64,000 bases of DNA from Savitreella phatthalungensis (GCA_051599415.1 AP039693.1:186001-250000); one strand, 5' to 3'. Shown: positions 9,301 to 60,200, counted from the stretch's first letter. Made by a program: numbers and translations. The notes: generated by a model from the sequence alone, not told the origin.

Positions 9301-9825
9301 TGCATCAAGAGAAACAGAGACGGAATCGAATATTTCAAAAGTGTGGCAATGCCCGGTAGAATCTAGACTCCTCGTGCACGTGTGTCTTTGTAGGTGTGGC
9401 TGGAGGAAAGATGAAATTTGATTGATATCTGGATCACTGGATAAATTTGAATTGATCTGGATGAATGCTGAAGTGAATTAATGAGATCTACTTGGCCATG
9501 CATCTCCAGAAAACCATGTCAGAATTTTGGATATCGCTTCCGCGTCATTTCCGGTCAGCGATCTGATCTCCAGCATCTATTTCAGATAGCAGTCAGTGAA
9601 TTGTGAGAGATTGTGAGTGGGGGAGTAATTTATAAATCTACAGTTACAAGGGTGAAACCGCCAAGGTGCATCAATCCATCACTAATTTGGATTTCCGGAT
9701 CAAATCCTGCTGGCTTCCTGTTTGGAGGAATTGATTCAAAAATGACGCGAGAGGAAATGTGATGAGCGTGATACAAAATCCCTCAAATCAAACGTCAGAA
9801 ATGGAACTTCTCACCTCAGCTACTC

Positions 9826-9906
9826 GATCTCACATACTCCACTCACTCACTCACTCACTCTCATACACACATACTCACTCATTCACTCACTCACTCACTT
9901 ACTCAA
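9826..9906 (+). repeat. (CACT)n / CA-rich simple repeat upstream of SOD2
   Basis: actcactcactcactcactc...actcactcattcactcactcactcact. Confidence 0.8.
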
Positions 9907-10200
9907 GTGTACAATCAGCGTACAGTATACAGTCAAGTGTAACTAAAGCAAGAGTCACAGAGTCTCAGTATCCCTCTCTCACTCTCACATCAGCTGGTTC
10001 ATTCTCCCCCCAGAGAACTCATACCATCTGCATCACACCATCTGCATCACACCATCTACACTGCCCGAGCAAACCACATCCCCTAACCTTCCAACCATCC
10101 AACCATCAACCACCACTTCCACACATACACACACAGACACACCCTCCAACCACTCCTCATACCCAACTCACCATCTATCCCAATCAAACATCACCCAGTC

Positions 10201-11001
10201 ATGTTCAGATCAGCTCTCTCAAAGACAGCTTCAGCACGAGCAGCTATCATGTCTTCTCCTTCAACCTTTGTCCGTAACAAGCACACTCTTCCAGCACTCC
10301 GTAAGTCTCTATGCACTCCCACAGCATCTGCCCTGATCCCTTTCTTAATCGACCTACAGAGACTGACCGCGTAGCTTACGAGTACAATGCTCTCGAGCCG
10401 GCAATTTCCGAGCAGATCATGAAACTTCACCACCAGAAGCACCACCAGACCTACGTCACCAACCTCAATGCTGCAGAGGAAAAGCTCGCAGCTGCTGTCA
10501 ACGCAAACGACGTCAAGGCCAACATTGCTCTTCAAGCAGCCATCAAGTTCAATGGTGGTGGCCACCTCAACCGTATGATCCATCTTCCGCCCTCATCTCA
10601 TCGCCATGAACATCCCCACTGACATAGCCTCTACAGACTCGCTATTCTGGGAGAACCTGGCTCCGACGTCGCAGGGCGGCGGTAAGCTGTCTGGCGGTGC
10701 CCTGTCTGACGCTATCGAGAAGGAGTTTGGTGGCTTGGAGAAGCTGAAGGGTGACTTCAACGCTGCGCTTGCTTCCATCCAGGGCTCTGGCTGGGGTTGG
10801 CTCGTGAAGGATGCCTCCACAGGCAGACTCAAGATTGTCACCACCGCCAACCAGGACCCGATCACTGGCGACAAGGTCATCTTGGGTGTCGATGCGTGGG
10901 AGCACGCGTACTACCTCCAGTACGAGAACGCAAAGGTCAAGTACTTTGACGCAATCTGGCAGGTCATCAACTGGGATGCCGCCACAAAGCGTTACGCGTA
11001 G
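10201..11001 (+). CDS. SOD2: Mn superoxide dismutase; exons 10201-10300, 10375-10572, 10637-11001 (isoform ending ...KRYA*)
   Basis: [50 protein letters not shown]; introns GTAAGT..CTGAC..TAG and GTATGA..CTGAC..CAG restore frame; presequence [15 protein letters not shown]. Confidence 0.96.
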
Positions 11002-11064
11002 GTAGTTCACATACACTCACCACCAACCTCCTGCTCCTCAGCTATTGACAAAACCATTCTGTAG

Positions 11065-11089
11065 GGACACAAGCAAGTCGAAACTCTGA
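11065..11089 (+). CDS. SOD2: Predicted alternative terminal exon of SOD2 adding DTSKSKL* (PTS1)
   Basis: Donor GTAGGT at 10998 overlaps the stop codon; branch-like TTGAC at 11045; acceptor TAG at 11062-11064; joined frame reads GCG GAC ACA AGC AAG TCG AAA CTC TGA. Confidence 0.75.
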
Positions 11090-11359
11090 GAAAACACCGA
11101 TAGCTCACCTCGAGCCTCCTAAACAATATACCAAGTATCCTATTCTTAACCCTACCGAAATCTTCTGACACGCATGTGCATCTAATCTCAACCCATTTCA
11201 GAAGCCCTGGGGAAACATCTCCTTACATTATTTCATCTATCGCGATTAATCAATCCGAGTGATATCACTCTGTGCAGCCAACACCGGCGTCTCTTTGTTT
11301 GGGGTGGTGGAGGATCTGGAGAACTCGGCGCGTTCCGTGAGTAGGTCGACTCTTTTGTG

Positions 11360-12331
11360 ATGCTATCGCCGTCTCCTGCAGGTTTCTCTGGCGCGCCGAT
11401 CACCCGCACTCTCGTCATCGGCACCGCCATCCTCTCGACCGCCTCGAGCGTCCTCGACGTCCGCCACCTGTTCTCGCTCGACCTTTTTGGGGAGGGGTGG
11501 TCGTGGTGGCGACTGGGGGTTTGGGAAGTGGGCGGTGGGTATGGGGACGTGGGTGGGATGGTGGTAGGGTCGCTTGCGATGTACAATTTGAGAGAGGTCG
11601 AGCGGTTTTACGGGAGTGACAAGTTCCTCTCGATCGTCCTCGGCACATGGGCGTCGACGTCTGTGGCGGTGCCTGTGGTCGCGCGCGCCCTCGCAGCCCT
11701 CACGGGAGCAGCAGCCTGCGGGAACATCCCACAGGGACCACTGCCGATCGTGTTTGCGCTCCTCGCACACTACGTCGCAGTCATACCGCCAACGTATACC
11801 GTTACGCTAGCGAGGACGTCCACCACGGGTGCAGTCCAGGTGTCCGACAAGGTATATATGGGTGCGCTCGCGATTGGGATGGCCACTGCTAGGATGCCTG
11901 GGTCTTTGGTGTGTGCGGTGGTGGGCTGGATGGTTGGGGTGGCGTATACGCGAGCTGGGACGACGGGGACGGGTTGGTGGTCAAAGGTGGTAGGTTGGAG
12001 GTTGCCGAGATGGTTGTCTGGGTTGGTGATTGATCATCGGCCTGTGAATGTCGTCGTGAGGGCGCGGGAGGAGGAATCGAGGAATGTGGGAGGTGGTGCA
12101 GGGGCGAGTCGGGGTGCAGGAGGTCGACGGAGTGGTGGGATCGGTGATGTGCTAGGCGCATTGGCTAGTACTGGAGACGTTCCTAGACCTGATCTCCAGC
12201 CACCCTCAGATACAGACGTCCAGACGCTGTCTGCGATGATGGGAATTACTCCGGAAGAAGCCGTCAGACATCTCCAGCACGCCAACAACTCACTTGAACG
12301 CGCTGCAGAGAATCTACTCGCCGGGTTGTAA
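11360..12331 (+). CDS. Rhomboid-like pseudoprotease with C-terminal UBA domain (Dsc2/UBAC2-like)
   Basis: GFSGAPIT N-terminus, YNLREVERFYGS-KF motif, several TM helices, C-terminal UBA (MGITPEEA...NNSLERAAENLL). Confidence 0.8.
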   Translation: MLSPSPAGFSGAPITRTLVIGTAILSTASSVLDVRHLFSLDLFGEGWSWWRLGVWEVGGGYGDVGGMVVGSLAMYNLREVERFYGSDKFLSIVLGTWASTSVAVPVVARALAALTGAAACGNIPQGPLPIVFALLAHYVAVIPPTYTVTLARTSTTGAVQVSDKVYMGALAIGMATARMPGSLVCAVVGWMVGVAYTRAGTTGTGWWSKVVGWRLPRWLSGLVIDHRPVNVVVRAREEESRNVGGGAGASRGAGGRRSGGIGDVLGALASTGDVPRPDLQPPSDTDVQTLSAMMGITPEEAVRHLQHANNSLERAAENLLAGL

Positions 12332-12487: not shown

Positions 12488-14257
12488 TTAGGCCACCTGC
12501 TGATCAGCGGCTTTGCCGTTGATCGATGGAGCGCTGCTATCCAGCTCAAGACGACCTCCCTCGCCTCGTCTCGGACGACCTTGACCCCGCCTTGCCTTGC
12601 GCTTGAATTGCTGATTGTCGTCGGTGCCGTGGCCGTGGCCGTTGTTCTGGCGGTGGCCGCCGTTGTTGTGGCCGTGGAACTTGGGGTTGTGCGGCTTCTC
12701 TTGCTCGGCGCAGAGACCCTTGATCGGGTCGACGCAGCCAGGGTGGTCTGACAGATTCAGCTTGTCACGCACGCGCTCGTTGATCGTCCACATATACGTC
12801 CAGCCCATCTTGTCCTTGACCTCTCGGAGTTCAGGCACCCAGAGCTTGATGAACTCGCCCTTGGGATCATAGTCGTGAGCTTGCTTGGCAGGGTTGAATC
12901 GACGGGATCCACGAGGATCGTTGCCGACGCCAGCTTGATATTGCCAGTTGCCCCAGTTCGAGGTGGCGTCGTGGTCGATCAGCTGCATTTCAAAGTACTC
13001 TGCACCGACACGCCAGTCGACGTCGAGATCCTTGCAAAGGAAAGAAGCGGCGATCTGGCGGGCGCGGTTGGACATGTATCCGGTGTGGTTCATCTCTCGC
13101 ATAGCGGCATCGACCATGCCCACGCCCGTCTCACCACGCTTCCATCGCTCGGCCTCGACAGTGTCGGCGCCCTTCCACTCGTACTCAATCGCTTTGCGCT
13201 TAAGACCTTCTTTTGTGAACAGATGGTGGCCAAATTTGAGACCAATGAACTTGAAATAATCACGCCAGAGCAGTTCAAATCGGATCCAGTAGGTTGAGGG
13301 ATTGCCTTCGAGCTCGTACTCCTGTTCGAGCTGCAGTAGTCGGTGGTGGATCAGTTTGGCACTCAGACATCCGATTGCAAGGAAGGCGGACAATTTGGTT
13401 GAGTAGGCGTGGCCGAGAAGCTGGTTGCGCGTCTGCTTGTATGTGGTCGCGGGTGCTTGCTTTCCACCAGAAAGATAGAAATCTAGGCGCTTGAGGGCGT
13501 TGGTCTCGCCACCCTGCATCGGATGAGCGCTGTGCTCTGGCACCTCGATGTCTCCTCCGACCGGCTCAAGCAGCTGGTGAAGGGCCTTTGCTTTGTCTTC
13601 TGGGACAAGGTAGTCGTTTTGGAAGCTCAGGTCAATGGTTGGTGGTGGTGGCAACTTGCTCGGGGCATCGTACGGCTTGCGTACATAATCGAGCGGCTCC
13701 TGCTTCTTTCTGAATTCCGTGTAAAAGTTCGGAAGCTTCTCGATAGGGAATTTCAGCTGGTCCCGCTCGATCAACGTGTTTTCCTCGACGCTTTTGACGA
13801 CGATGTCTTTTGGAAGAGCTTTGCGGAGGCGGTTCTGCTCCCTGATCTCTTCGGTCGTGTACTCTTCCTGATACCAGAGCTCGACTTGTTCGTCCTTTGA
13901 CTGGAGGAGCTCGACGATTTGTGGGATGATTTTCTCACTCCGTCCCGCGGTGATGATGAGGTCAGCACCTTTTGATTTGTACGACTGTTTGAGATCCCAA
14001 ATTGCGTCACATAAGAACTTGAGTCTGAACTGTCCGCATCTCCAAGCACCGAATCGTCCACGAACTTCGCCTCGCTTTTCTGGGTTCTTGGTGACCTCTT
14101 GCTTGAGGAAAGGAGAAACCTCGATCTGGTGGGCTGGGAAGATGTAGATTGGCACGAAGGAGGTGTACTCGCCCTGACGTTCCACTAGCTGCTGGATGAC
14201 TTTGTTGTCATGCAGACGAAGGTCACGTCGGTGATAATAGAGCAATGTCTTGCCCAT
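12488..14257 (-). CDS. Cryptochrome DASH (photolyase/cryptochrome family)
   Basis: RRDLRLHDN, YKQTRNQLLG, STKLSAFLAIGCLS, FELLWRDYF, GYMSNRARQ, QYQAGVGNDPR, QAHDYDPKG. Confidence 0.93.
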   Translation of the reverse strand: MGKTLLYYHRRDLRLHDNKVIQQLVERQGEYTSFVPIYIFPAHQIEVSPFLKQEVTKNPEKRGEVRGRFGAWRCGQFRLKFLCDAIWDLKQSYKSKGADLIITAGRSEKIIPQIVELLQSKDEQVELWYQEEYTTEEIREQNRLRKALPKDIVVKSVEENTLIERDQLKFPIEKLPNFYTEFRKKQEPLDYVRKPYDAPSKLPPPPTIDLSFQNDYLVPEDKAKALHQLLEPVGGDIEVPEHSAHPMQGGETNALKRLDFYLSGGKQAPATTYKQTRNQLLGHAYSTKLSAFLAIGCLSAKLIHHRLLQLEQEYELEGNPSTYWIRFELLWRDYFKFIGLKFGHHLFTKEGLKRKAIEYEWKGADTVEAERWKRGETGVGMVDAAMREMNHTGYMSNRARQIAASFLCKDLDVDWRVGAEYFEMQLIDHDATSNWGNWQYQAGVGNDPRGSRRFNPAKQAHDYDPKGEFIKLWVPELREVKDKMGWTYMWTINERVRDKLNLSDHPGCVDPIKGLCAEQEKPHNPKFHGHNNGGHRQNNGHGHGTDDNQQFKRKARRGQGRPRRGEGGRLELDSSAPSINGKAADQQVA

Positions 14258-14509
14258 GGTAGAAGTGTGTGCTGAGAGTGACGGAATGATCGAGCCTTGA
14301 CAGGAAATAAGAAGGCAGGGTTGAAGAGAAGTCTAGCGGTAGCTGAGGCCAGGGGGGAACTTTTGGTCAGGTGGTGGATGGTTGGGATAATGCAAGTGAG
14401 GATACAGGTTGGAAGAGGGGGCTGACGTTCGAATGCCCGGGGGATGCCTGTACGCGTTTGACGAGGGATTGTTGATGGATGTGAAGAGTAGGTACGCAAG
14501 CGTGAAGGA

Positions 14510-15598: not shown

Positions 15599-17858
15599 TC
15601 ACGCGTCTGATCTTGATCCCGGGTGAGATGTGGTCGATGTGGATGTTTGACCGCGTGCGTGAATCGGTCTCTCTATGATGCTAGCTTTGACTCGCTTGCT
15701 ACGCCGTAGTGGCGTCGACGGGACGCAATCTTCTGTCCTGTCAGGCAAGATCGCAGTCGCAAAGCTAGGCGGCCTTGACGCGTGTACGTCTGGCGGCGAT
15801 GTCGTGTGGATGCTGTCAGATATAATCAACAGTGGACTGCCATCTCGAGTCGCATTCAAGTCGACCGTCTCGTCGTCATCGTCATTGTCCAGAATCTCGT
15901 CTCTGTCCACCTCCTGATCCTCCCAAGACCGCTTCCGACCACGCACTTCAGCGACTGACAATTTCTCTGCAGCTGGCGTCAAATCAACTTCCACAGGCTG
16001 CTTCTTCCGCCGCGTAGTATCTTTCTTGGGTGGCGGAGTTAGCGACGAGGGTTTGAAGACCTCGACCGAAGACTGTTGTGTCAGCACAGAACCACCGTGA
16101 TCACCATCCTCGTCACTCAATCCGTAGGATGGATCGAAAATCTTCTTGACCAGGCGACGACGGTTGCTTGTTGACTTGATTGCTTCGTATGTAGCTGCGT
16201 GTGTGGTTGCTGCACCTTTGCGTTTGGTGGCGCTGGTGGTGGTTGCTGCGACGTATTTCGCCCAGCCTTCGGCAACGAGGCGGTTTAGGACGCCCGTGGC
16301 CGTGGCGCTGTCGCATCCGAGTTTCTTGGCAAATCCGCGGACGCTGGCGTACGTGTACCCTTCGTGCCAGATCGAGTGCAGCGCGCGCCTGAATAGACAT
16401 AGCGATCTGAACTCGTCCAGTCTGGTCTCTGCCGTGGTCGAGACTCCTCCACCGAATCTGCAAGAGTAGCACTCGTGGTTGTAGTTCTTTGGGACACCTT
16501 TCCAGAAACCATAGCACGGCACGTGCTGCCACAGCCCACACTCATCGCAGCACACCATGTCACCGTCCTCGAGCGTGTCACCACACTCGCACCGCACAAT
16601 CTCTCCCTCTCCGAGACCGTCAGCTGTCTGCGGCTTGTGGTCATCTTGCATGGGTGCTGACATTGCCAAGGACGATTCTTCAATCGAAGGGGAGATGTGC
16701 GTGGCCTTGCGATGCTGACTGCGCGTGACGATTTGGCTGGCTGGAACGAGGTCCGTCGGCGGCGTGGCTGAATCATCGATCACCAGCGTCTCCGGAATGT
16801 CCTTTGCTCGCTCCTGTACTGAAGATGAGGGAAACGTGGTTGCTTGCTGTGACGTGAGTCCACCAGTCGGTGTCTGAGGGAACGTAGGCAGTCCCAAGCT
16901 TGGCGGTAAATCGTGAAGTGTATCATCTTGTTTCTCGTCGATCAGCCCCTTGGCAGCGAGTCTCGCAAAGTGCTCTGCAGCCCATGCTTTCCGCTGAGAG
17001 CCACTGTTTGAGTCCTGTGACTGGCTACTGGCGACAGCAGACTCATTCAGGGCTGCGACGCGGAGCGTACACTTGTGTAATCCTGTGTTGAGTGAGCCAA
17101 TCGCTTGGTCCTGCGGTCGTTCGTGGTCGTGCCGGGTGTAGAAAGTAGCCAGCTCGGTCTCGAGCAAGGGTCTAAACCCAGGGGGCTCGTAATCTACAGG
17201 CGCAGACTCCGTGTAGAACAGCCGGAGATTGAGCAGTTTCGCCCGCTTGAGCGGCAGAGGCGATAAGGACTGCGTAAGGACGATGAGTTGGCGGAAGAGC
17301 TGCTGGATTGTTCTGCGAGCGGATGTGATTGGAAGAGGTCCAGTGTCTCGTGATGACTTGCCATCGCGGACGAGAAGTGTGGGCACATCGCCCTCGGCGT
17401 AGGCAAAGTGAAAGGTGTAGCACTCGAGCACGCTCGCCGGATCACTCTCATCAACACCGATGCTAAGCATGACTGCGGCGAGATGACCTGCGCTCAGCGC
17501 CACGAAGACACCTTTGTCAAGGTAGTCGAGCATTCTATCTACTTCAGTGGAGACATGCCGCTTGAGACGCATGACTTTTTGACCTTTGTTGTGTTTGCCA
17601 CTTGCACGGGGGGATGTCTGTTCCGCGATGAAGCGCTCTTCCACATAGCACGTATCTGGGAACAGGCCGCGAAGATAGGTGATACAGCCAATCGAAGCAT
17701 CTACCGTGGTCTGGAGCAATTCAAGGCTGGTCTTTTGTGTCGTCACAAGCGCCGGACCGGCCTGCTTCGTCTGGACTTTGGTCTGGAAGGTTAGCGCCTT
17801 GCTCAGCAATGCAACGTTGATTATGATGACTCACTCTCTGCGCAGTCTTGGCTGCCAT
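15599..17858 (-). CDS. HOP1: Meiotic axis HORMA-domain protein Hop1; exons 17858-17835 and 17782-15599
   Basis: HORMA motifs CITYLRGLFP, ECYTFHF-Y, RQLIVLTQSL-PLP, DYEPPGF; PHD finger CECG..CDEC..QHVPC..CYSC; winged helix; intron 17834-17783 GTGAGT..GCTAAC..CAG supplies start MAAKTAQR. Confidence 0.9.
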
Positions 17859-49426: not shown

Positions 49427-50593
49427 TTACAACTTGGTCTTCGACTTCGGTGGTGCGTCTTGCTGCATGCGAATCAGGCCTTCCTGGATACACTCTGCGA
49501 CAAGGGTACCGTCGCGCTGAAAGATGCGACCAATGTTGAAACCCCTGCCGGAGCCTGTCCACGGAGACTCCATCTCGAAATAGAGCCAGTCGTCGGCCTT
49601 GGTCGGCGTGTGGAAGTAGATAGAGTGGTCGAGGGAGGCCATCATGGATACGTCTCGGGGCGACTTGCCATTCACCCGGAGCGAGGTCGACAGGAACCAG
49701 GAGTCGGAGAAATAAGCGATGCACATGGCGTGCATGTGGACGCCGCCAGCGATTTTGCCCTTCGCTTTCGCCCAATAAGCTTGCTTGCGCTTGTATGGGG
49801 GCAAGACTTTGTCAAGCCCGAGGCCAAGTGGAGATGAGGGCTTAGCATTGCCATTTCCTGCTCTTGCCGTCGTGGCAGAAGACGCGGAGGATAAGTCCGA
49901 TAAGCGTGAGCTGTCGAGTCCCTTGAGCTTATCATGGAGCTCTGGATACAAGTATTGCTGAGGAACCATGCGCGACTCGGTCGGACCGATTGTCATGTTG
50001 TGGATGAGCCTGCGCCTGAGTTCTTCCGAAATGGTGAAATGCGCAGCGTTCTTGGACGACAGCAGTTCTTCATCACTTGGCAATGACTCGGGCTTTGGTA
50101 CATGCGGAGGCATTTGCGCTTGGTGCGTCAGCGTCGACGTCTCTGGGCGCTGGAAAGAGCACGTGACGGTGAAGATGACGCGATTCCGCTGGCGCGCTTG
50201 AACAGTGCGCGTGATATATGACTTTCCATCGCGCACACGCTCGACGTGATAAACGACAGGTCTCGTCTCGTCTCCCTTCAAGACAAAGTATGAGTGAAGC
50301 GAGTGAATGAAATAGCCATCGGGCACCGTCTTCGATGCTGCGCTCAGCGACTGCGCAATCACGGCGCCGCCAAAGATACCTCGTGCCCCTGCCGGACGCC
50401 ACAGCTGCTTTGCCGAACGGTAAATATCGTAGTCTAGTTCTTCCAGCTCCAGATTGGACTCAATCATAGATAGCAAGTCATCTGAATTGTTGCCGTTGCC
50501 ATTGCCATTGCTGTTGTTATTGTTGCTAGCCCCGCCGCTGCCACTTGCGCCAGAAGCCGCGCTCATACTCCACGGTTGACCAACACGCGACAT
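49427..50593 (-). CDS. Acyl-CoA thioesterase II (TesB/Tes1/ACOT8), probably peroxisomal
   Basis: RGIFGGAVIAQ, HSLHSYF, RVRDGKSYITRTV-A-Q, AYFSD, SLDHSIYFH, QEG; C-terminal KSKTKL. Confidence 0.93.
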   Translation of the reverse strand: MSRVGQPWSMSAASGASGSGGASNNNNSNGNGNGNNSDDLLSMIESNLELEELDYDIYRSAKQLWRPAGARGIFGGAVIAQSLSAASKTVPDGYFIHSLHSYFVLKGDETRPVVYHVERVRDGKSYITRTVQARQRNRVIFTVTCSFQRPETSTLTHQAQMPPHVPKPESLPSDEELLSSKNAAHFTISEELRRRLIHNMTIGPTESRMVPQQYLYPELHDKLKGLDSSRLSDLSSASSATTARAGNGNAKPSSPLGLGLDKVLPPYKRKQAYWAKAKGKIAGGVHMHAMCIAYFSDSWFLSTSLRVNGKSPRDVSMMASLDHSIYFHTPTKADDWLYFEMESPWTGSGRGFNIGRIFQRDGTLVAECIQEGLIRMQQDAPPKSKTKL

Positions 50594-51430
50594 GACTTCT
50601 CCAAAGATCGTCAACGAGGATTTTTGGCTTTAAATGGCTCGGGAATCGCTAATTGATTTAGAGACTTCCGACTTGGTAACAAATGCGACAGTCAATACGA
50701 AGGTTGTTCTCGTCGTCGGTGATGATGTGGACGGATCACGGTACCGAGACACGGGTATTGATGGCAGAAGCCGTTCAGCTAAAGCTAGCCATACAGTCTG
50801 AAGAGTAGAGGCTGAATCGAAAATGGACCGCGGCTCCCCCACTCGCTCGATCGAAATAGTTTGATCCAAAATTCACAGAGTCGCTAATCCGCAGAAAAGG
50901 GGGGGGGGGGATTTGCACAGATCTAGAATCGATTCAATTTGACATATTGTGTATCGACCAATTGATGGCCTCTGAAGTATTCACATATTTTCGAAATTAA
51001 ATCAATTATGCGATTGAGTCTATCACATGCGCTCAATTTCTTCTTTCCACCGCAGAACCAATGTAGCCTAATCACACCTTCCACATTAATCACTGAAAGT
51101 CATCTTGAGTGTCGACTACTCGAAGCTTCGTCACCTCATTCGTTAACAGCTCTCACTTACCTTACATGCACACTCTAGGCTCGATTTTCCAACCTGCAGT
51201 AAAGTTATCAATTTTGCAAATCTGTCAGTGATAATATCAATATTAGTATTTGATCACATATGAATTACTCATTTCACCACTACTCCATTGTCAAGGCACC
51301 GTGCAACATCATCATCTAGGAGTACAAGACCAGTGAATCAGAAGAATTTCAGAGCACTGAGCTTTGTGGTGCGCTGTCAATCATCCGGGGAACCTTGCTT
51401 GATCCCGTGCCGACTTAGGTGGCGAGACAG

Positions 51431-54666: not shown

Positions 54667-55712
54667 AGCTTCCTGATTGGTTTTTTCAATCCGAAGCAGG
54701 TGCGTCCAAAAGTCTGGCTTCCTTTGAAGGAGCGCGCTTGAGCCAAGAGAGGCAAGAGAGATAGAGAGTTGCGATGGCTGCCTGACGCCGTATACGAGGG
54801 GACAATTTTCCTTGCGTGTGACAGGTTAGCAAGAGGTCACGCTCAAGTTTTTTATGCCTTGACGAGGGAGATGTGTGTCCTGGATGTAATGAAATGTTCG
54901 TCTTGCGCATGCGCGCGACGTCACGTCTTTAAGCATCGCTACAGAAGTCAGCTACCACGATGATGCGTTTGCGTGCGCAATCACCTTTGCCTGTCCCATC
55001 GCCTGTCTGAAGCAGCCTCGCAAGACGGGCTGGCACCAAAGTGAAACCTCATTCGGTCTCTGCTTGAGCAATGGAATGCCTGAATAGAAAGGCCTGACAC
55101 AACGGGGACTTTCAAAAGCAACCGAGACAAATCGAGGCGCCGTTGTGTCTCTCCTGGTAGACTGGCCGCAGATTTAATCTGACATCTGTTCCATGTCGCT
55201 TGAAGACACGCGAAGCGCAGATCAGAGACCGTGCGAGACACTTTACGGTTGAGATGTCTCCTGGGGGTCAAATGGCTAGGACTTCAAGTCGCTATCAGAC
55301 CCGTCTCAGACTAGAACCGTGTCAGAATATCACAAATGCTCTCCGCTCTGCGGGGAGCGCCAAAGATCGCCAACCACTTCCAGTCACAGCCGAGCGCGTA
55401 TCTGCCTCAGAGAGCAAATTTCTAAGCATTTTAGAGTACCACGGCTACAAGCCATCTTGCCAGTTTTGGCCATAACTGGAAAAAGTGACTTGCCGCATCG
55501 GGAAAGAGTTTCACAGGAGTTTGAACCACCACAGTGGATATTCACAAACGAAATGTAGACGAGAAATTTCCTCCGAACATGATCATGTCGACTGATCGAT
55601 GTGGGCAGGGACGACGAGCATATTGATGGAATGATGAGAAAGGACTACGAAGAGACGAACTACGGGAATGTGGAAATTGTGAAAGGTTAGTAAAGAGATA
55701 GAAGCTCGATGC

Positions 55713-57206
55713 TCACAGTCCCTCGTGGATGGTCATGTCGACCAATTCACGCAATTCCTGAATCTCTGAGCGAATTCCAGAGGAGATTGCATCCGCGAAG
55801 TCGCGGAGCTCATCAATCCTCTCTGTCTTCTCAACGATCCACGGATTCGATTCGGAGTCAATGCCATTGTTAGCGAGGATGTTTGGTGTCCCTGCGGGCA
55901 GGTCGGCGAGCACGCCGACAGAGCCCAGCGAGATGAGCTTCTTCTTCAGCTTGAGAGGTGTGACAGGCGAGTCACCACCAAAAGCCGACGATGATGTTGG
56001 CTGGAGACCGAGCGCGTAAGTAAGCAGTCCACAAATGTGAGGAGATGCCATGGAGGTGCCGCTGATGGTGTTTGTGGCATATTTGGACCCAATCCAGGTC
56101 GACAGAATATTGAGACCAGGCGCGAAAATGTCCGTGCATTTACCGTGATTTGAGAAGTAAGCGCGCTCGTCCGCAAGAGACGATGCACCAACAGTCACCG
56201 CTTTCTCTGCTGCCGCTGGTGAGTAGTTGCAGGCATCTGCGTTGTCATTGCCGGCAGCGACCGCGAAGTGAATGCCCGAATCAACAGCTGCATTCACGAC
56301 GCGATCGAGCGCTGGGGACTTTCCGCCACCGAGTGACATGTTTGCAGTGGACCCCTTAAAAGGCTTCTTCTTGTTAGCGGCGTCCTTCTTAGCGGCCTTG
56401 TGAGCATCGGCTGCCCATTGCACACCAGCAACGACATCTGACATGCTGCCGGATCCGTTCGATCGAAGAACTTTGACGGCCACGACGTTGGCTTTCTTTG
56501 CCACGCCGTAACGCTTGCCGGCGACTGTACCTGCACAATGCGTGCCGTGTCCGTTGCCGTCAATATCCGCGTCGCCTTGTGGAATCGTTTTTCCCCATCT
56601 GGCACGACCCTCAAAATCTACGTGATCGACATTGATTCCGGTGTCAATGATGTATGCAGTGACGCCCTCTCCAGCGCTCGCATCATATTCGTATTTGTTG
56701 AAGGTGCTGAACCCGAGAGTCTTCTTATGCGATAGACGCGCCAGACCCCAGGGAGCATTCTTTTCGAGCTCGCTTTCCTGCGAGTCGTTGCGCTTCACAG
56801 GAGCAAGAGCATGCACGACGGAGTCCCGCTCAATGAAGTCGACGTCAGGTGACTTGCGGAGTTCGGCTACGACTTCGTCAGTGAAAGCACCAGAGTAGCC
56901 CGCAAAACCAACGAGGTCGGAATATACGTGCTTCAAACCAGTAATGACGTCCCAGTTGACGTGGAAGTCGGCGACACTCAAGTCGCGCTTCTCTAGACTG
57001 GACGCGTGAAGCGATTGCACCCATTGATGGTGCTCTGCGGCATCTGCATTGCGCACGTGATCCTTAAAAACAACGATGTAATGATGGTCGATTGTCTCAG
57101 CATCGTAGGCAGTGACGAGTGGCGCCTCGTCCACGGCTGCGTGCTTTGTCGATGCTGCTGCTGCTTTGAACAGCACGACAGCGATCAGGCTCGCTTGGAA
57201 TTTCAT
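55713..57206 (-). CDS. Vacuolar subtilisin-like serine protease (proteinase B/cerevisin, S8)
   Basis: Signal peptide, I9 propeptide YIVVFK, catalytic IDTG, HGTHCAG, SGTSMASPH. Confidence 0.96.
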   Translation of the reverse strand: MKFQASLIAVVLFKAAAASTKHAAVDEAPLVTAYDAETIDHHYIVVFKDHVRNADAAEHHQWVQSLHASSLEKRDLSVADFHVNWDVITGLKHVYSDLVGFAGYSGAFTDEVVAELRKSPDVDFIERDSVVHALAPVKRNDSQESELEKNAPWGLARLSHKKTLGFSTFNKYEYDASAGEGVTAYIIDTGINVDHVDFEGRARWGKTIPQGDADIDGNGHGTHCAGTVAGKRYGVAKKANVVAVKVLRSNGSGSMSDVVAGVQWAADAHKAAKKDAANKKKPFKGSTANMSLGGGKSPALDRVVNAAVDSGIHFAVAAGNDNADACNYSPAAAEKAVTVGASSLADERAYFSNHGKCTDIFAPGLNILSTWIGSKYATNTISGTSMASPHICGLLTYALGLQPTSSSAFGGDSPVTPLKLKKKLISLGSVGVLADLPAGTPNILANNGIDSESNPWIVEKTERIDELRDFADAISSGIRSEIQELRELVDMTIHEGL

Positions 57207-60200
57207 TTGTGAAAAACTGCGTAACTGCTCTTTCGGTTCTCAACAGGGCAATCTGAGTTCTACTCGTTCGTGGATCGTCTTTCTACGACGCGATGCGGGA
57301 CGAGTTGCGATGTGATGCGCGTGCTGGAGGCGCAATGCGACACAATGTCTGCGTCCGATAGGATGTGCGCGCGTGCGCCAGTGGTCGGTGTGTCTAAGTC
57401 GCAACGGTGTGTAGCTCCCCGCACACGCTCGTGGAACAACGTCACGAGAGATTGCGCGTCCAGAAGGCGCATGCGATTGCTGATCTGACGAGATATTCGA
57501 CACTGCTCAGATTGACTGATTGTGCAAACCGAAAACAGAATCAGATCTCGTGATCATTTGCAATATCTGGTGATTGTTTCCAATCTAAAGCTTGGCTCAG
57601 TCGATCTCAGTTGGGCTGGGAACCAGCACCCGAAGCCGTAGCTCGGAGTTGAGCGAACCAGAATGCACGCGAGTTGTGACTGAGTTAGGCATATGCAGAA
57701 CAACCGACTGATTTCTATCAGGATACATGCACTTGACAATCATTCCGTACAGCTAGGCGCTCACTTGTGTGCGGAACATATGCTCAGCAAGCAAATACGA
57801 GCTTACTGACTTCGCTCCGAGACTGCGTAGAAGCCTGAGCACATGATTTAGGCCGTCCTCGTGAGATGGCTCGCCCTTTCCTGCAGCCGCAGCATGCAAT
57901 AGATTTCTGAACGAGTCAATTGAAATTCCTGAGAACGACCCGCAGACATCAGCTTGTACAGCCATAGTCGACTTGATGCATCGCTGAGGGTACAAAATTG
58001 TGTGACTGATCCAAGATTGGTACAGACACGCTGTCGTAGTGGCTGGCGCATTCTCACTTGATGCCGTCGCGCATGCTTTCGATCAACAGTTCAGTCAAAA
58101 TCTGCCATGAAGTTAAATTTCGCGTGCTCTCAATGGTACTGTCGTATGCTCTTGAAAGAAGCTGACGCAGTGCCGATGCGCACGACGCAGGCGAGGCGAT
58201 TTGCTCATGGCATCTTAGACAATTCTAGTAACGAAACCCGCTTTGCGTTTAGCATCCATGGCACGCTGTTGACACCAGAATTTCATGTGTGCATCATTCT
58301 TGTCACGCTTCTCAATCGCTCATGGCGGAATTGCGCATATGTATAGACAAGATGTCGTGCAGACTGCTCATGCTTTCCGAAGTCGCGAAGTTGCGAAGTC
58401 GTGGGAAATCGACATTATCGCGAAGAAGGGCTACAAGGAACGCGAGCGCAGAGGACTGACATGGTCGCTGCGCATTTCATCACATTTCGACCAGCGAATC
58501 TCGAGAGCCCTCACGCGACGTATTTGTGCGCATCTCCTGGTCTGATCCTGCATATCGTGGACCACATTATCTGGCTGATACAGGAGAGCAATTTTGGCTC
58601 ATGTCGGCACAGCGTGCGATGTTGTACTGCGAGTGCATCAGCATCTGTCAGGCGTATGATCATTGGCCAGCATCGAGTTTCCTTTTTCGTGTGCTGGACA
58701 GCAGGCCGATGCTTAAGCGACTGAATCGGACTGCTGCGGCCGAGCACCAAAACTGTTGAAAAGCATACCGCATTGCGGACTTTGCCTAATTGCTGCGCGG
58801 TTCATCAGATCCATTCTAGGATTTCCGGAGGGTCTAGTGTTTCGTGTAAGATTGATGAAGAGTTGAATTTAGTGATTCGTATACGCCGAAAGGATTTATA
58901 TTTCGACAATGCAAGCCGTCACTAAAACATGGCAGCACTATGGCCCAAGCTGAGCGTCATAGGAGACTCACTACCAGCAGCCACTGATTCTTGGCATCAA
59001 GCTATCGTGCATTCAGAAGCTTTTTATCGTGCTTGGCCAACTGACCTGAAGGCATAGGCCGGAAAGACCCAAGGCGCATATTCGTCGGGGCCGCGTACGA
59101 GCTCGCCGTGGGGAAATATCCATGGGTTGAGGGGTGGAATGGTGGTGATATGATCGTCAGGGGAGAGCTTATCGCAACACCTTGATTGATACCCAGGCTG
59201 TGGCTTCGCGGCTCTAAGCTTTCGAATGTTCTAATTGGTGAACAATCTTGTGGCTGCATAAAGAGCCTCGACGTCATATGAAATTGTACAGCAGTACGCT
59301 CGTTTGGAATCAGAAACTTTGACTCCGGCCAGATATGTAAAACTTCCAAGCAAGCCAAACGAAGTCACAAAAAGATCCCCAACGAAGCACCACGAGTTCA
59401 TCTCAACATTGTGCGAGCGGCGATCCCGATACATGGGATGCGTTGTGTAGAGTGCACCCATATCATATGATTGTTCGTCACTGATAAGATGAAGGAAAGC
59501 AGTGTATGCAATGATATCTCGGAGCTTGACGTGGCCGACAGTGGACTAAAAAGAGGTCTGCTAGTGAAAGCATTACACGAATTTCGCTTCTGCCGAATAA
59601 TGACGGCTACATCAACATACCGAGCACAGAAAAGGGCCTTATGTACGAAGATTATGGAACGTGAATGATGACGAACGTTGAGCCGGACCCGGTTGCCGCT
59701 CCATCCGAACAAGGCGAGAATGGTCTGCTACTCGACCCAAACCGTTCTAGATAGATTGGAGCCAACGATTGGTTATCAAGCCCGACATAAATGACTTCAT
59801 TTTCCGCCCTGAGGGGCATTTTCAGGAGTTTTTCAGCAGAAAAGGACTAGATCGACGGGAGGTGGGATGCCGAAGCCTTTGAAGGTCTGTATTTACAAGA
59901 TTATTTTTCCTTGAAGACTTCGAAGTCCGTTCTGAAACACAATCATTCGCAAGCTGACGTGGTTCATAATTAAACGTGGTTGGAAGCCCCGTCCGACTAA
60001 GCTCCGCTACGGGGTCAAAAGCTGTTCGACTCAATCTGGACCAGGTCAAGCCTCCTAGGGCGTTTCACCATACCTTTTTTCAACTCTATTCTTGTATAGT
60101 GGCCTAGGCCTGTTGCAGATCGAAGCAATTGAACTTTATAGCGACCGCTCATCGATATAGCTCATCAATGTCCCAGAAACGCGGTTCGTCGTTTCCAATC

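Follow-up and report, generated by a model that had tools for sequence, protein, structure and literature searches.

The leaf yeast Savitreella phatthalungensis (Taphrinales) carries, in the stretch of 64,000 nucleotides (nt) analysed here and hereafter called the window, a gene for a SOD2-type manganese superoxide dismutase (Mn-SOD) whose stop codon lies inside a candidate splice donor. If the putative third and last intron beginning at this donor is removed, the stop codon is lost and the enzyme receives a C-terminal tail ending in -SKL, a canonical type 1 peroxisomal targeting signal (PTS1). Judged from the sequence, intron 3 is probably spliced at least to some extent, and a terminal micro-exon encoding the PTS1 is likely. 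We lean modestly towards a fuller reading, in which intron 3 is real and spliced mainly at the donor GTAGGT, the main product is an enzyme of 227 amino acids (aa) bearing both a mitochondrial and a peroxisomal signal, and the dosing between the two organelles is set by splicing, by competition of the signals or by initiation at an internal methionine, Met17.

The last intron and the -SKL tail

The long open reading frame (ORF) of the gene ends TAC GCG TAG, the stop TAG occupying 10999-11001. The hexamer GTAGGT at 10998-11003 spans the third base of the Ala codon together with the entire stop, and a second GT follows downstream in GTAGTT at 11002-11007. They are followed by a branch-like ATTGAC (TTGAC at 11045-11049) and by an acceptor TAG at 11062-11064, and the intron thus enclosed measures 67 nt via the first donor and 63 nt via the second, the gene's other introns being 74 and 64 nt long. 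In its size and in its A[CT]TGAC branch box, which lies 16 nt 5' of the acceptor, intron 3 resembles the gene's own introns. Joining 10997 to 11065 in silico gives a 227-aa product ending ...KRYADTSKSKL, with the new stop TGA at 11087-11089. RNA left unspliced, or spliced at the second donor, gives in silico a 220-aa product ending ...KRYA, so that three RNAs correspond to two proteins. All of these elements, namely the ORF end, both GTs, TTGAC, the acceptor, the 67-nt intron and the ...KRYADTSKSKL ending, lie exactly where the initial annotation of this DNA had placed them.

The tail conforms to the tripeptide rule [SAC][KRH][LM] only when intron 3 is removed. It has Lys at -2 and -4 and a polar linker, DTSK; a basic residue at -4 is typical of strong PTS1s. 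An alternative acceptor at 11073 (AAG) likewise yields ...AKSKL, and 12 other acceptors lead to unrelated tails. Read-through of the TAG was considered as another route to a PTS1 and was rejected, as it yields ...AIDKTIL, which is no PTS1.

Enzyme family and targeting signals

The product matches the Pfam families PF00081 (Sod_Fe_N) over residues 27-108 (114.1 bits, cut-off 27) and PF02777 (Sod_Fe_C) over residues 120-218 (121.7 bits, cut-off 20.9; profile positions 3-102 of 102), and its best match in the PDB is the Mn-SOD 1kkc (E 7.3e-75). Across 25 aligned fungal sequences, H52, D185, H189 and the run N171-Q172-D173 are invariant and H100 is nearly invariant; from the numbering of human and yeast MnSOD, we take H52, H100, D185 and H189 to be the metal ligands and Q172 to be the Mn-type Gln. 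The -SKL tail falls outside the Pfam domain, and by their sequences the 220-aa and 227-aa products are both complete enzymes.

The N-terminal 26 residues would fit a mitochondrial presequence: they are basic, without acidic residues, and disordered in an AlphaFold2 model with a mean predicted local distance difference test (pLDDT) score of 86.5, in which residues 1-4 and 6-23 are below 50. The second in-frame ATG of the gene is codon 17 (Met17, at 10249-10251). At the other end of the model, the last helix continues to residue 224 and is followed by three residues of coil, the mean pLDDT being 75 for residues 221-227, and the model gives weak evidence that the tail would be accessible. In a maximum-likelihood tree built from 51 rows chosen by hand, the protein groups with Protomyces and Taphrina (100/97 support) within the Ascomycota (99/95). 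The two Pfam domains, the SOD2 orthology clade and the predicted presequence therefore bear out the earlier designation of the product as a mitochondrial-type Mn-SOD.

Chance and the deposited annotation

The window contains 4167 stop triplets on both strands, and at 348 of them a GT with G at +5 extends across the stop. An intron-like layout was taken as a YAG acceptor preceded within 5-35 nt by YTRAY, an intron of 40-130 nt and an extension of 15 aa or less. Such a layout with a short extension is seen at 60 of the 348, and a single one of these 60, namely the SOD site, leads to an [SAC][KRH][LM] ending, which occurs at none of the 4166 other stops of the window. Simulation of 168349 stops in 40 second-order Markov sequences produced 2203 intron-like layouts, seven PTS1-like tails and one SKL, that is, chance rates per stop of about 4e-5 (PTS1-like tails of all kinds) and 6e-6 (SKL). 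For the window's 21 long-ORF ends the expected chance is roughly 1e-3 to 1e-4; three of the 21 carry an intron-like layout on the stop, and the short PTS1 tail is present at the SOD gene only. In addition, a metagenome scan supplied 80 Mn-SOD loci (best identity 66%, none of them from Taphrinales), 45 of which served as a distant control; one locus, L018, was left out because its contig ends within it. At the remaining 44 loci no PTS1 was found at the end of the protein, after read-through or after removal of a GT...AG intron of 40-150 nt starting within the last 8 nt. It is very unlikely that the layout is accidental for one gene taken by itself, but rare coincidences are to be expected once a very large number of windows is scanned.

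The deposited protein BFZ54816.1 (227 aa), recorded as 'Superoxide dismutase [Mn], mitochondrial [Savitreella phatthalungensis]' and matched with 100% identity by the exon-3 translation in a search limited to longer proteins, is letter for letter the four-exon translation spliced at GTAGGT. Its 90% cluster has one member, and no short isoform is deposited. The sole deposited product is hence the SKL form, contrary to the expectation of the initial annotation that automated annotation would likely miss it.

A second donor-on-stop layout is found inside the same window, at the end of a subtilase gene. The stop TGA of this gene (55713-55715, minus strand) lies inside GTGAGC; a perfect TACTAAC and, beyond it, a TAG acceptor complete an intron-like stretch of 57 nt (55660-55716). 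Splicing here would append about 39 unrelated residues; the deposited subtilase P0121 (497 aa) ends at the TGA with ...IHEGL, and a relative ends with ...EHGL. The layout is possibly that of an intron of the 3' untranslated region (UTR) with its donor over the stop codon. Because the annotation left it unspliced, the pipeline adds no such exons by default, and its choice to splice at the SOD gene becomes a little more meaningful.

PTS1 tails on other Mn-SODs

The tail of the Savitreella enzyme is absent from the other 24 of the 25 aligned homologues. Since Savitreella is nested in the tail-less Taphrinales (100/97), its tail represents an independent gain. The Taphrina deformans Mn-SOD (P0003) contains a 19-aa insert exactly at the position of Savitreella intron 2 (alignment columns about 168-185); the annotation seems to have translated an unspliced in-frame intron here. 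As the Taphrina model appears to mishandle an intron, micro-exons may likewise have been overlooked in the annotations of Protomyces, Taphrina and Saitoella.

Outside this group, PTS1 tails on Mn-SODs recur. Among 150 diverse cluster representatives of Fe/Mn-SODs, one has a canonical PTS1, the Mn-SOD of Microbotryum saponariae (P0249, ...TASGAKL). A search with P0249 returned 120 mostly basidiomycete Mn-SODs, and 23 of these end in AKL or SKL, belonging to genera such as Microbotryum, Phenoliferia, Glaciozyma, Leucosporidium, Mycena, Roridomyces, Plicaturopsis and Thelephora. Fourteen of the 23 start 5 residues or less from the mature N-terminus, that is, they are presequence-less proteins of about 200 aa (including those of Leucosporidium, Meredithblackwellia, Mycena, Roridomyces and Plicaturopsis); seven have at least 15 residues ahead of the mature N-terminus, and two are without the motif used. 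An internal Met precedes the mature start in five of these seven, namely three Microbotryum proteins (P0249, P0396 and P0397), where it is about 15 residues upstream, and those of Phenoliferia (P0408) and Glaciozyma (P0412), where it stands directly before the mature start. These five proteins have presequences of 23-24 residues and end in ...GAKL, and in sister taxa the same protein begins at that internal Met. From their sequences, the five look like cases in which one gene serves mitochondria and peroxisomes by alternative starts, the arrangement known from IdpA of Aspergillus nidulans and from the Fe-SOD of Lingulodinium (PMC3798809).

On the tree, the PTS1 label needs 6-7 changes, and a Microbotryomycetes group is seen beside a separate clade of agaricomycete paralogues (99/91). 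The agaricomycete clade (P0490, P0497, P0499, P0504, P0512 and related sequences) consists of presequence-less proteins of about 200 aa, and nine of its 11 rows end in SKL or AKL. These paralogues coexist with ordinary mitochondrial copies of about 220 aa; Mycena epipterygia, for example, has both.

The initial annotation had supposed that a peroxisomal switch on a Mn-SOD was not described. Literature searches indeed found no description of a fungal Mn-SOD with a PTS1 or in the peroxisome, but PTS1-bearing Mn-SODs are common in basidiomycete records, as the above count shows. Consequently, a peroxisomal Mn-SOD in Savitreella is plausible and less novel than was first claimed.

Proposed mechanism and alternatives

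The mechanism proposed here is as follows. The 67-nt last intron would be removed mainly via the GTAGGT donor, and the main product would be the 227-aa enzyme, which bears a predicted mitochondrial presequence at its N-terminus and -SKL at its C-terminus. The unspliced mRNA would give a complete, untagged enzyme of ordinary length (...KRYA), a plain mitochondrial form. This form requires no second donor because translation meets the in-frame TAG as soon as it enters the intron; an excess of early in-frame stops is reported for fungal introns and is read as a retained-intron safeguard (available text of PMC4991832). The peroxisomal share may be set by the completeness of intron 3 splicing, by competition of the presequence with the PTS1, and possibly by a translation or transcription start at Met17, with a shorter presequence as the result. 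No choice between donors 4 nt apart would be needed. Dual localisation of proteins in which a mitochondrial signal competes with a PTS1 is documented, for several of them in yeast, in the accessible part of PMC7217942. The splicing, the reading of the tail by Pex5 and the balance of the forms are what we infer from the sequence. In the original interpretation, a plausible terminal intron whose removal takes out the stop and supplies a canonical PTS1 is supported in silico; the donor switch is unsupported, and the expected concealment from annotation is wrong.

The strongest competitor, though an unlikely one, is that no splicing occurs: the gene would end at TAG 10999-11001 and encode an ordinary mitochondrial Mn-SOD, the SKL being a coincidence taken up by an ab initio predictor. 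Quite a number of observations speak for this or weigh against the proposed mechanism. The C-terminus of the short form is normal, as KR[FY] is followed by 0-6 final residues in other fungal Mn-SODs and a RYA ending occurs in 4 of 120 homologues. The annotated proteins of the close relatives Protomyces (...KRFSS), Taphrina (...KRFSA) and Saitoella (...KRFSA) have no tail, and among the 120 best ascomycete-rich homologues a PTS1 ending is seen in one, Savitreella itself. Fungal splice signals are given as GTATGT, CTRAY and YAG in the available text of PMC4574748, and the first base of TTGAC differs from the CTRAY consensus. The base composition of intron 3 is like that of introns 1 and 2 but equally like that of the 3' UTR, and is uninformative because the compositions of intron and 3' UTR are alike. 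Moreover, the subtilase gene shows a similar intron-like layout on a stop that homology makes the true end; the deposited SOD model may be purely ab initio, in which case it draws on the same sequence signals; and in a very large scan, events at the 1e-5 level are bound to appear. Against the absence of splicing stand the low chance rates given above, per stop and for the window's 21 gene ends, the PTS1 tagging of the same enzyme several times independently in fungi, the basic residue at -4 that is typical of strong PTS1s, and the fact that the predictor left the subtilase layout unspliced.

Splicing of intron 3 without any sorting role of the SKL is improbable. All protein would then be mitochondrial and the tail a neutral, recent extension, in keeping with its occurrence in a single one of the sampled species. 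As a rule, an N-terminal presequence prevails over a C-terminal PTS1, as in IdpA of A. nidulans (available sections of the review PMC3798809), and by this analogy the tag may be largely silent on the full-length protein, a further point against the proposed mechanism. On the other hand, several dual-signal yeast proteins do reach peroxisomes (PMC7217942, in the part accessible), basidiomycete Mn-SODs pair presequence and internal Met with AKL, and the odds are low that a neutral 8-codon extension would end exactly in SKL.

The initial annotation had proposed a regulated donor switch, in which GTAGGT at 10998 would give the SKL form and GTAGTT at 11002 the ...KRYA form with a shared acceptor. 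Both GTs are present, and an exonic AG stands immediately 5' of the second donor. However, the second GT carries no signal in itself, as a GT at +5/+6 is inherent to any GTNNGT donor and is also present in the GTAAGT of intron 1 and in a GTGAGT at 17834. Furthermore, GTAGTT has T at +5, whereas all four of the other donors placed in the window (GTAAGT, GTATGA, GTGAGT and GTGAGC) have G there; in GTAGGT itself, +5/+6 are occupied by GT. This comparison covers only the four hand-checked donors; the window's roughly 21 genes are mostly single long exons, and the intron inventories made with a codon-score finder, a pattern scan (542 raw hits), an ORF-pair joiner and a small-ORF list were too noisy. 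Plain intron retention already yields a form without PTS1, and retention or signal competition is more likely than a donor switch. The switch is unlikely, but it keeps a small probability because a 4-nt splice-site choice toggling a PTS1 is real biology, proven at 3' sites for MDH2 of Yarrowia lipolytica (available text of PMC3372373).

Returning to the mechanism with intron 3 spliced at GTAGGT, its evolutionary extension is tentative and, in our estimate, somewhat short of an even chance: the only SOD2-type enzyme visible in Savitreella would have gained its tag when part of the 3' UTR became an intron and a micro-exon with the donor over the ancestral stop, splicing (perhaps with Met17) would dose the enzyme between mitochondria and peroxisomes, and the gene would be one instance of a recurrent, undescribed peroxisomal Mn-SOD of fungi.

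Gene structure and neighbouring genes

The gene layout in Table 1 was obtained by reading 9600-11700 together with a six-frame ORF table and splice calculation.

Table 1. Exons and introns of the Savitreella Mn-SOD gene, and the subtilase gene with a comparable stop
Feature	Position	Strand	Remarks
Exon 1	10201..10300	+	ATG 10201-10203; codes for the predicted N-terminal presequence
Intron 1, 74 nt, GTAAGT...ACTGAC...TAG	10301..10374	+	Removal required for the frame; joined stretch aligns with all homologues
Exon 2 (Sod_Fe_N domain)	10375..10572	+	Splice calculation, Pfam, alignment
Intron 2, 64 nt, GTATGA...ACTGAC...CAG	10573..10636	+	Same position as the 19-aa insert in the Taphrina deformans annotation
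Exon 3 (end of Sod_Fe_N and whole Sod_Fe_C)	10637..10997	+	Stops after GC, the first two bases of codon 220 (Ala)
Putative intron 3, 67 nt, donor GTAGGT, acceptor TAG	10998..11064	+	Removal reproduces the deposited protein exactly
Putative terminal micro-exon, 25 nt	11065..11089	+	Finishes Ala220, then DTSKSKL (PTS1) and stop TGA 11087-11089
Subtilase gene	55713-57239	-	Stop overlapped by donor-like GTGAGC

Reading of the sequence found no other ATG between 9950 and 10201, which leaves ATG 10201 without a predecessor over at least 250 nt. The region 5' of the SOD start is nearly free of G (3% over 10050-10200) and contains simple repeats of the CTCA/CACT type (9830-9900 and 10020-10200, plus strand). 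Directly downstream of the SOD gene lies a UBA-domain gene (11345-12331), on which a photolyase/cryptochrome-type gene (12488-14332, minus strand; DNA_photolyase and FAD_binding_7) converges. A GTGAGT at 11339 was tried as an intron donor and rejected as unneeded, the downstream ORF having its own ATG at 11360. Further away, a 52-nt intron (17783-17834, minus strand; GTGAGT...GCTAAC...CAG) joins an 8-codon first exon (MAAKTAQR) to a long ORF (15599-17830, minus strand) for a protein with HORMA and a PHD finger.

An acyl-CoA thioesterase gene at 49427-50629 (minus strand; Pfam 4HBT_3, Acyl_CoA_thio and 4HBT_3C), presumably Tes1/ACOT8-like, encodes a protein ending ...DAPPKSKTKL, with a non-canonical Thr at -3. 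This lysine-rich end resembles the SOD tail and hints slightly at a use of such xKL tails by Savitreella.

Comparison with known systems

The acquisition of a PTS1 through a 3'-terminal intron and enzymes with dual signals are both of a known kind; for Mn-SOD as the cargo, no description was found in the literature searched. The comparison with known cryptic PTS1s drawn in the initial annotation is apt. In MDH2 of Yarrowia lipolytica (Kabran et al. 2012, PMC3372373), by the available text, splice sites 4 nt apart decide the presence of the PTS1 (AKI) and both forms are functional enzymes. As described there, the Yarrowia pair consists of two 3' sites proven by cDNA, RNA-seq and microscopy, whereas that of Savitreella is a candidate pair of 5' sites read from the DNA; the Yarrowia cargo is cytosolic, while that of Savitreella has a predicted mitochondrial presequence. 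Ustilago maydis GAPDH and A. nidulans PGK likewise obtain a C-terminally extended peroxisomal isoform by alternative splicing, as Savitreella would (review PMC3798809, in its available sections). They are glycolytic, cytosolic housekeeping enzymes whose localisation is experimental, and their extended form is the hidden one, whereas the extended form is the annotated one in Savitreella.

An N-terminal organelle signal and a C-terminal PTS1 are combined in one gene, as in Savitreella, in the Fe-SOD of Lingulodinium polyedrum and in the isocitrate dehydrogenase IdpA of A. nidulans, in which the PTS1 takes effect when a downstream start codon or start site leaves the N-terminal signal out (PMC3798809, same sections). 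These are other organisms and other enzymes, and according to the same sections their PTS1 is not added by a terminal intron. Ptc5, Pxp2 and Dpi8 of Saccharomyces cerevisiae also carry both signals and reach both organelles (Stehlik et al. 2020, PMC7217942, accessible part), as is proposed for the full-length form of Savitreella. Ptc5 requires, by the same text, a transmembrane segment and IMP processing, that is, mitochondrial transit, and neither feature is seen in the soluble Savitreella enzyme.

If the mechanism is true, the Savitreella gene is a compact example in which a stop codon is reused as a splice donor, the retained-intron product is fail-safe and one protein has two organelle signals; it would also exemplify the rise of a new C-terminal signal from a 3' UTR. 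The peroxisomal SOD treated in the available sections of PMC3798809 is a copper-zinc SOD carried by a PTS1-bearing chaperone, and a dedicated fungal enzyme is not mentioned in those sections. Further close counterparts are the basidiomycete Mn-SODs ending in AKL or SKL, which belong to the same family and in which a short flexible linker precedes a canonical PTS1, as in the predicted spliced product of Savitreella. They differ in forming separate clades with independent gains and in that 14 of the 23 are presequence-less paralogues, but some of them combine presequence, internal Met and PTS1 just as Savitreella does with Met17. If the tails of Savitreella and of the basidiomycetes work, they constitute a direct and repeatedly evolved fungal route of Mn-SOD into peroxisomes.

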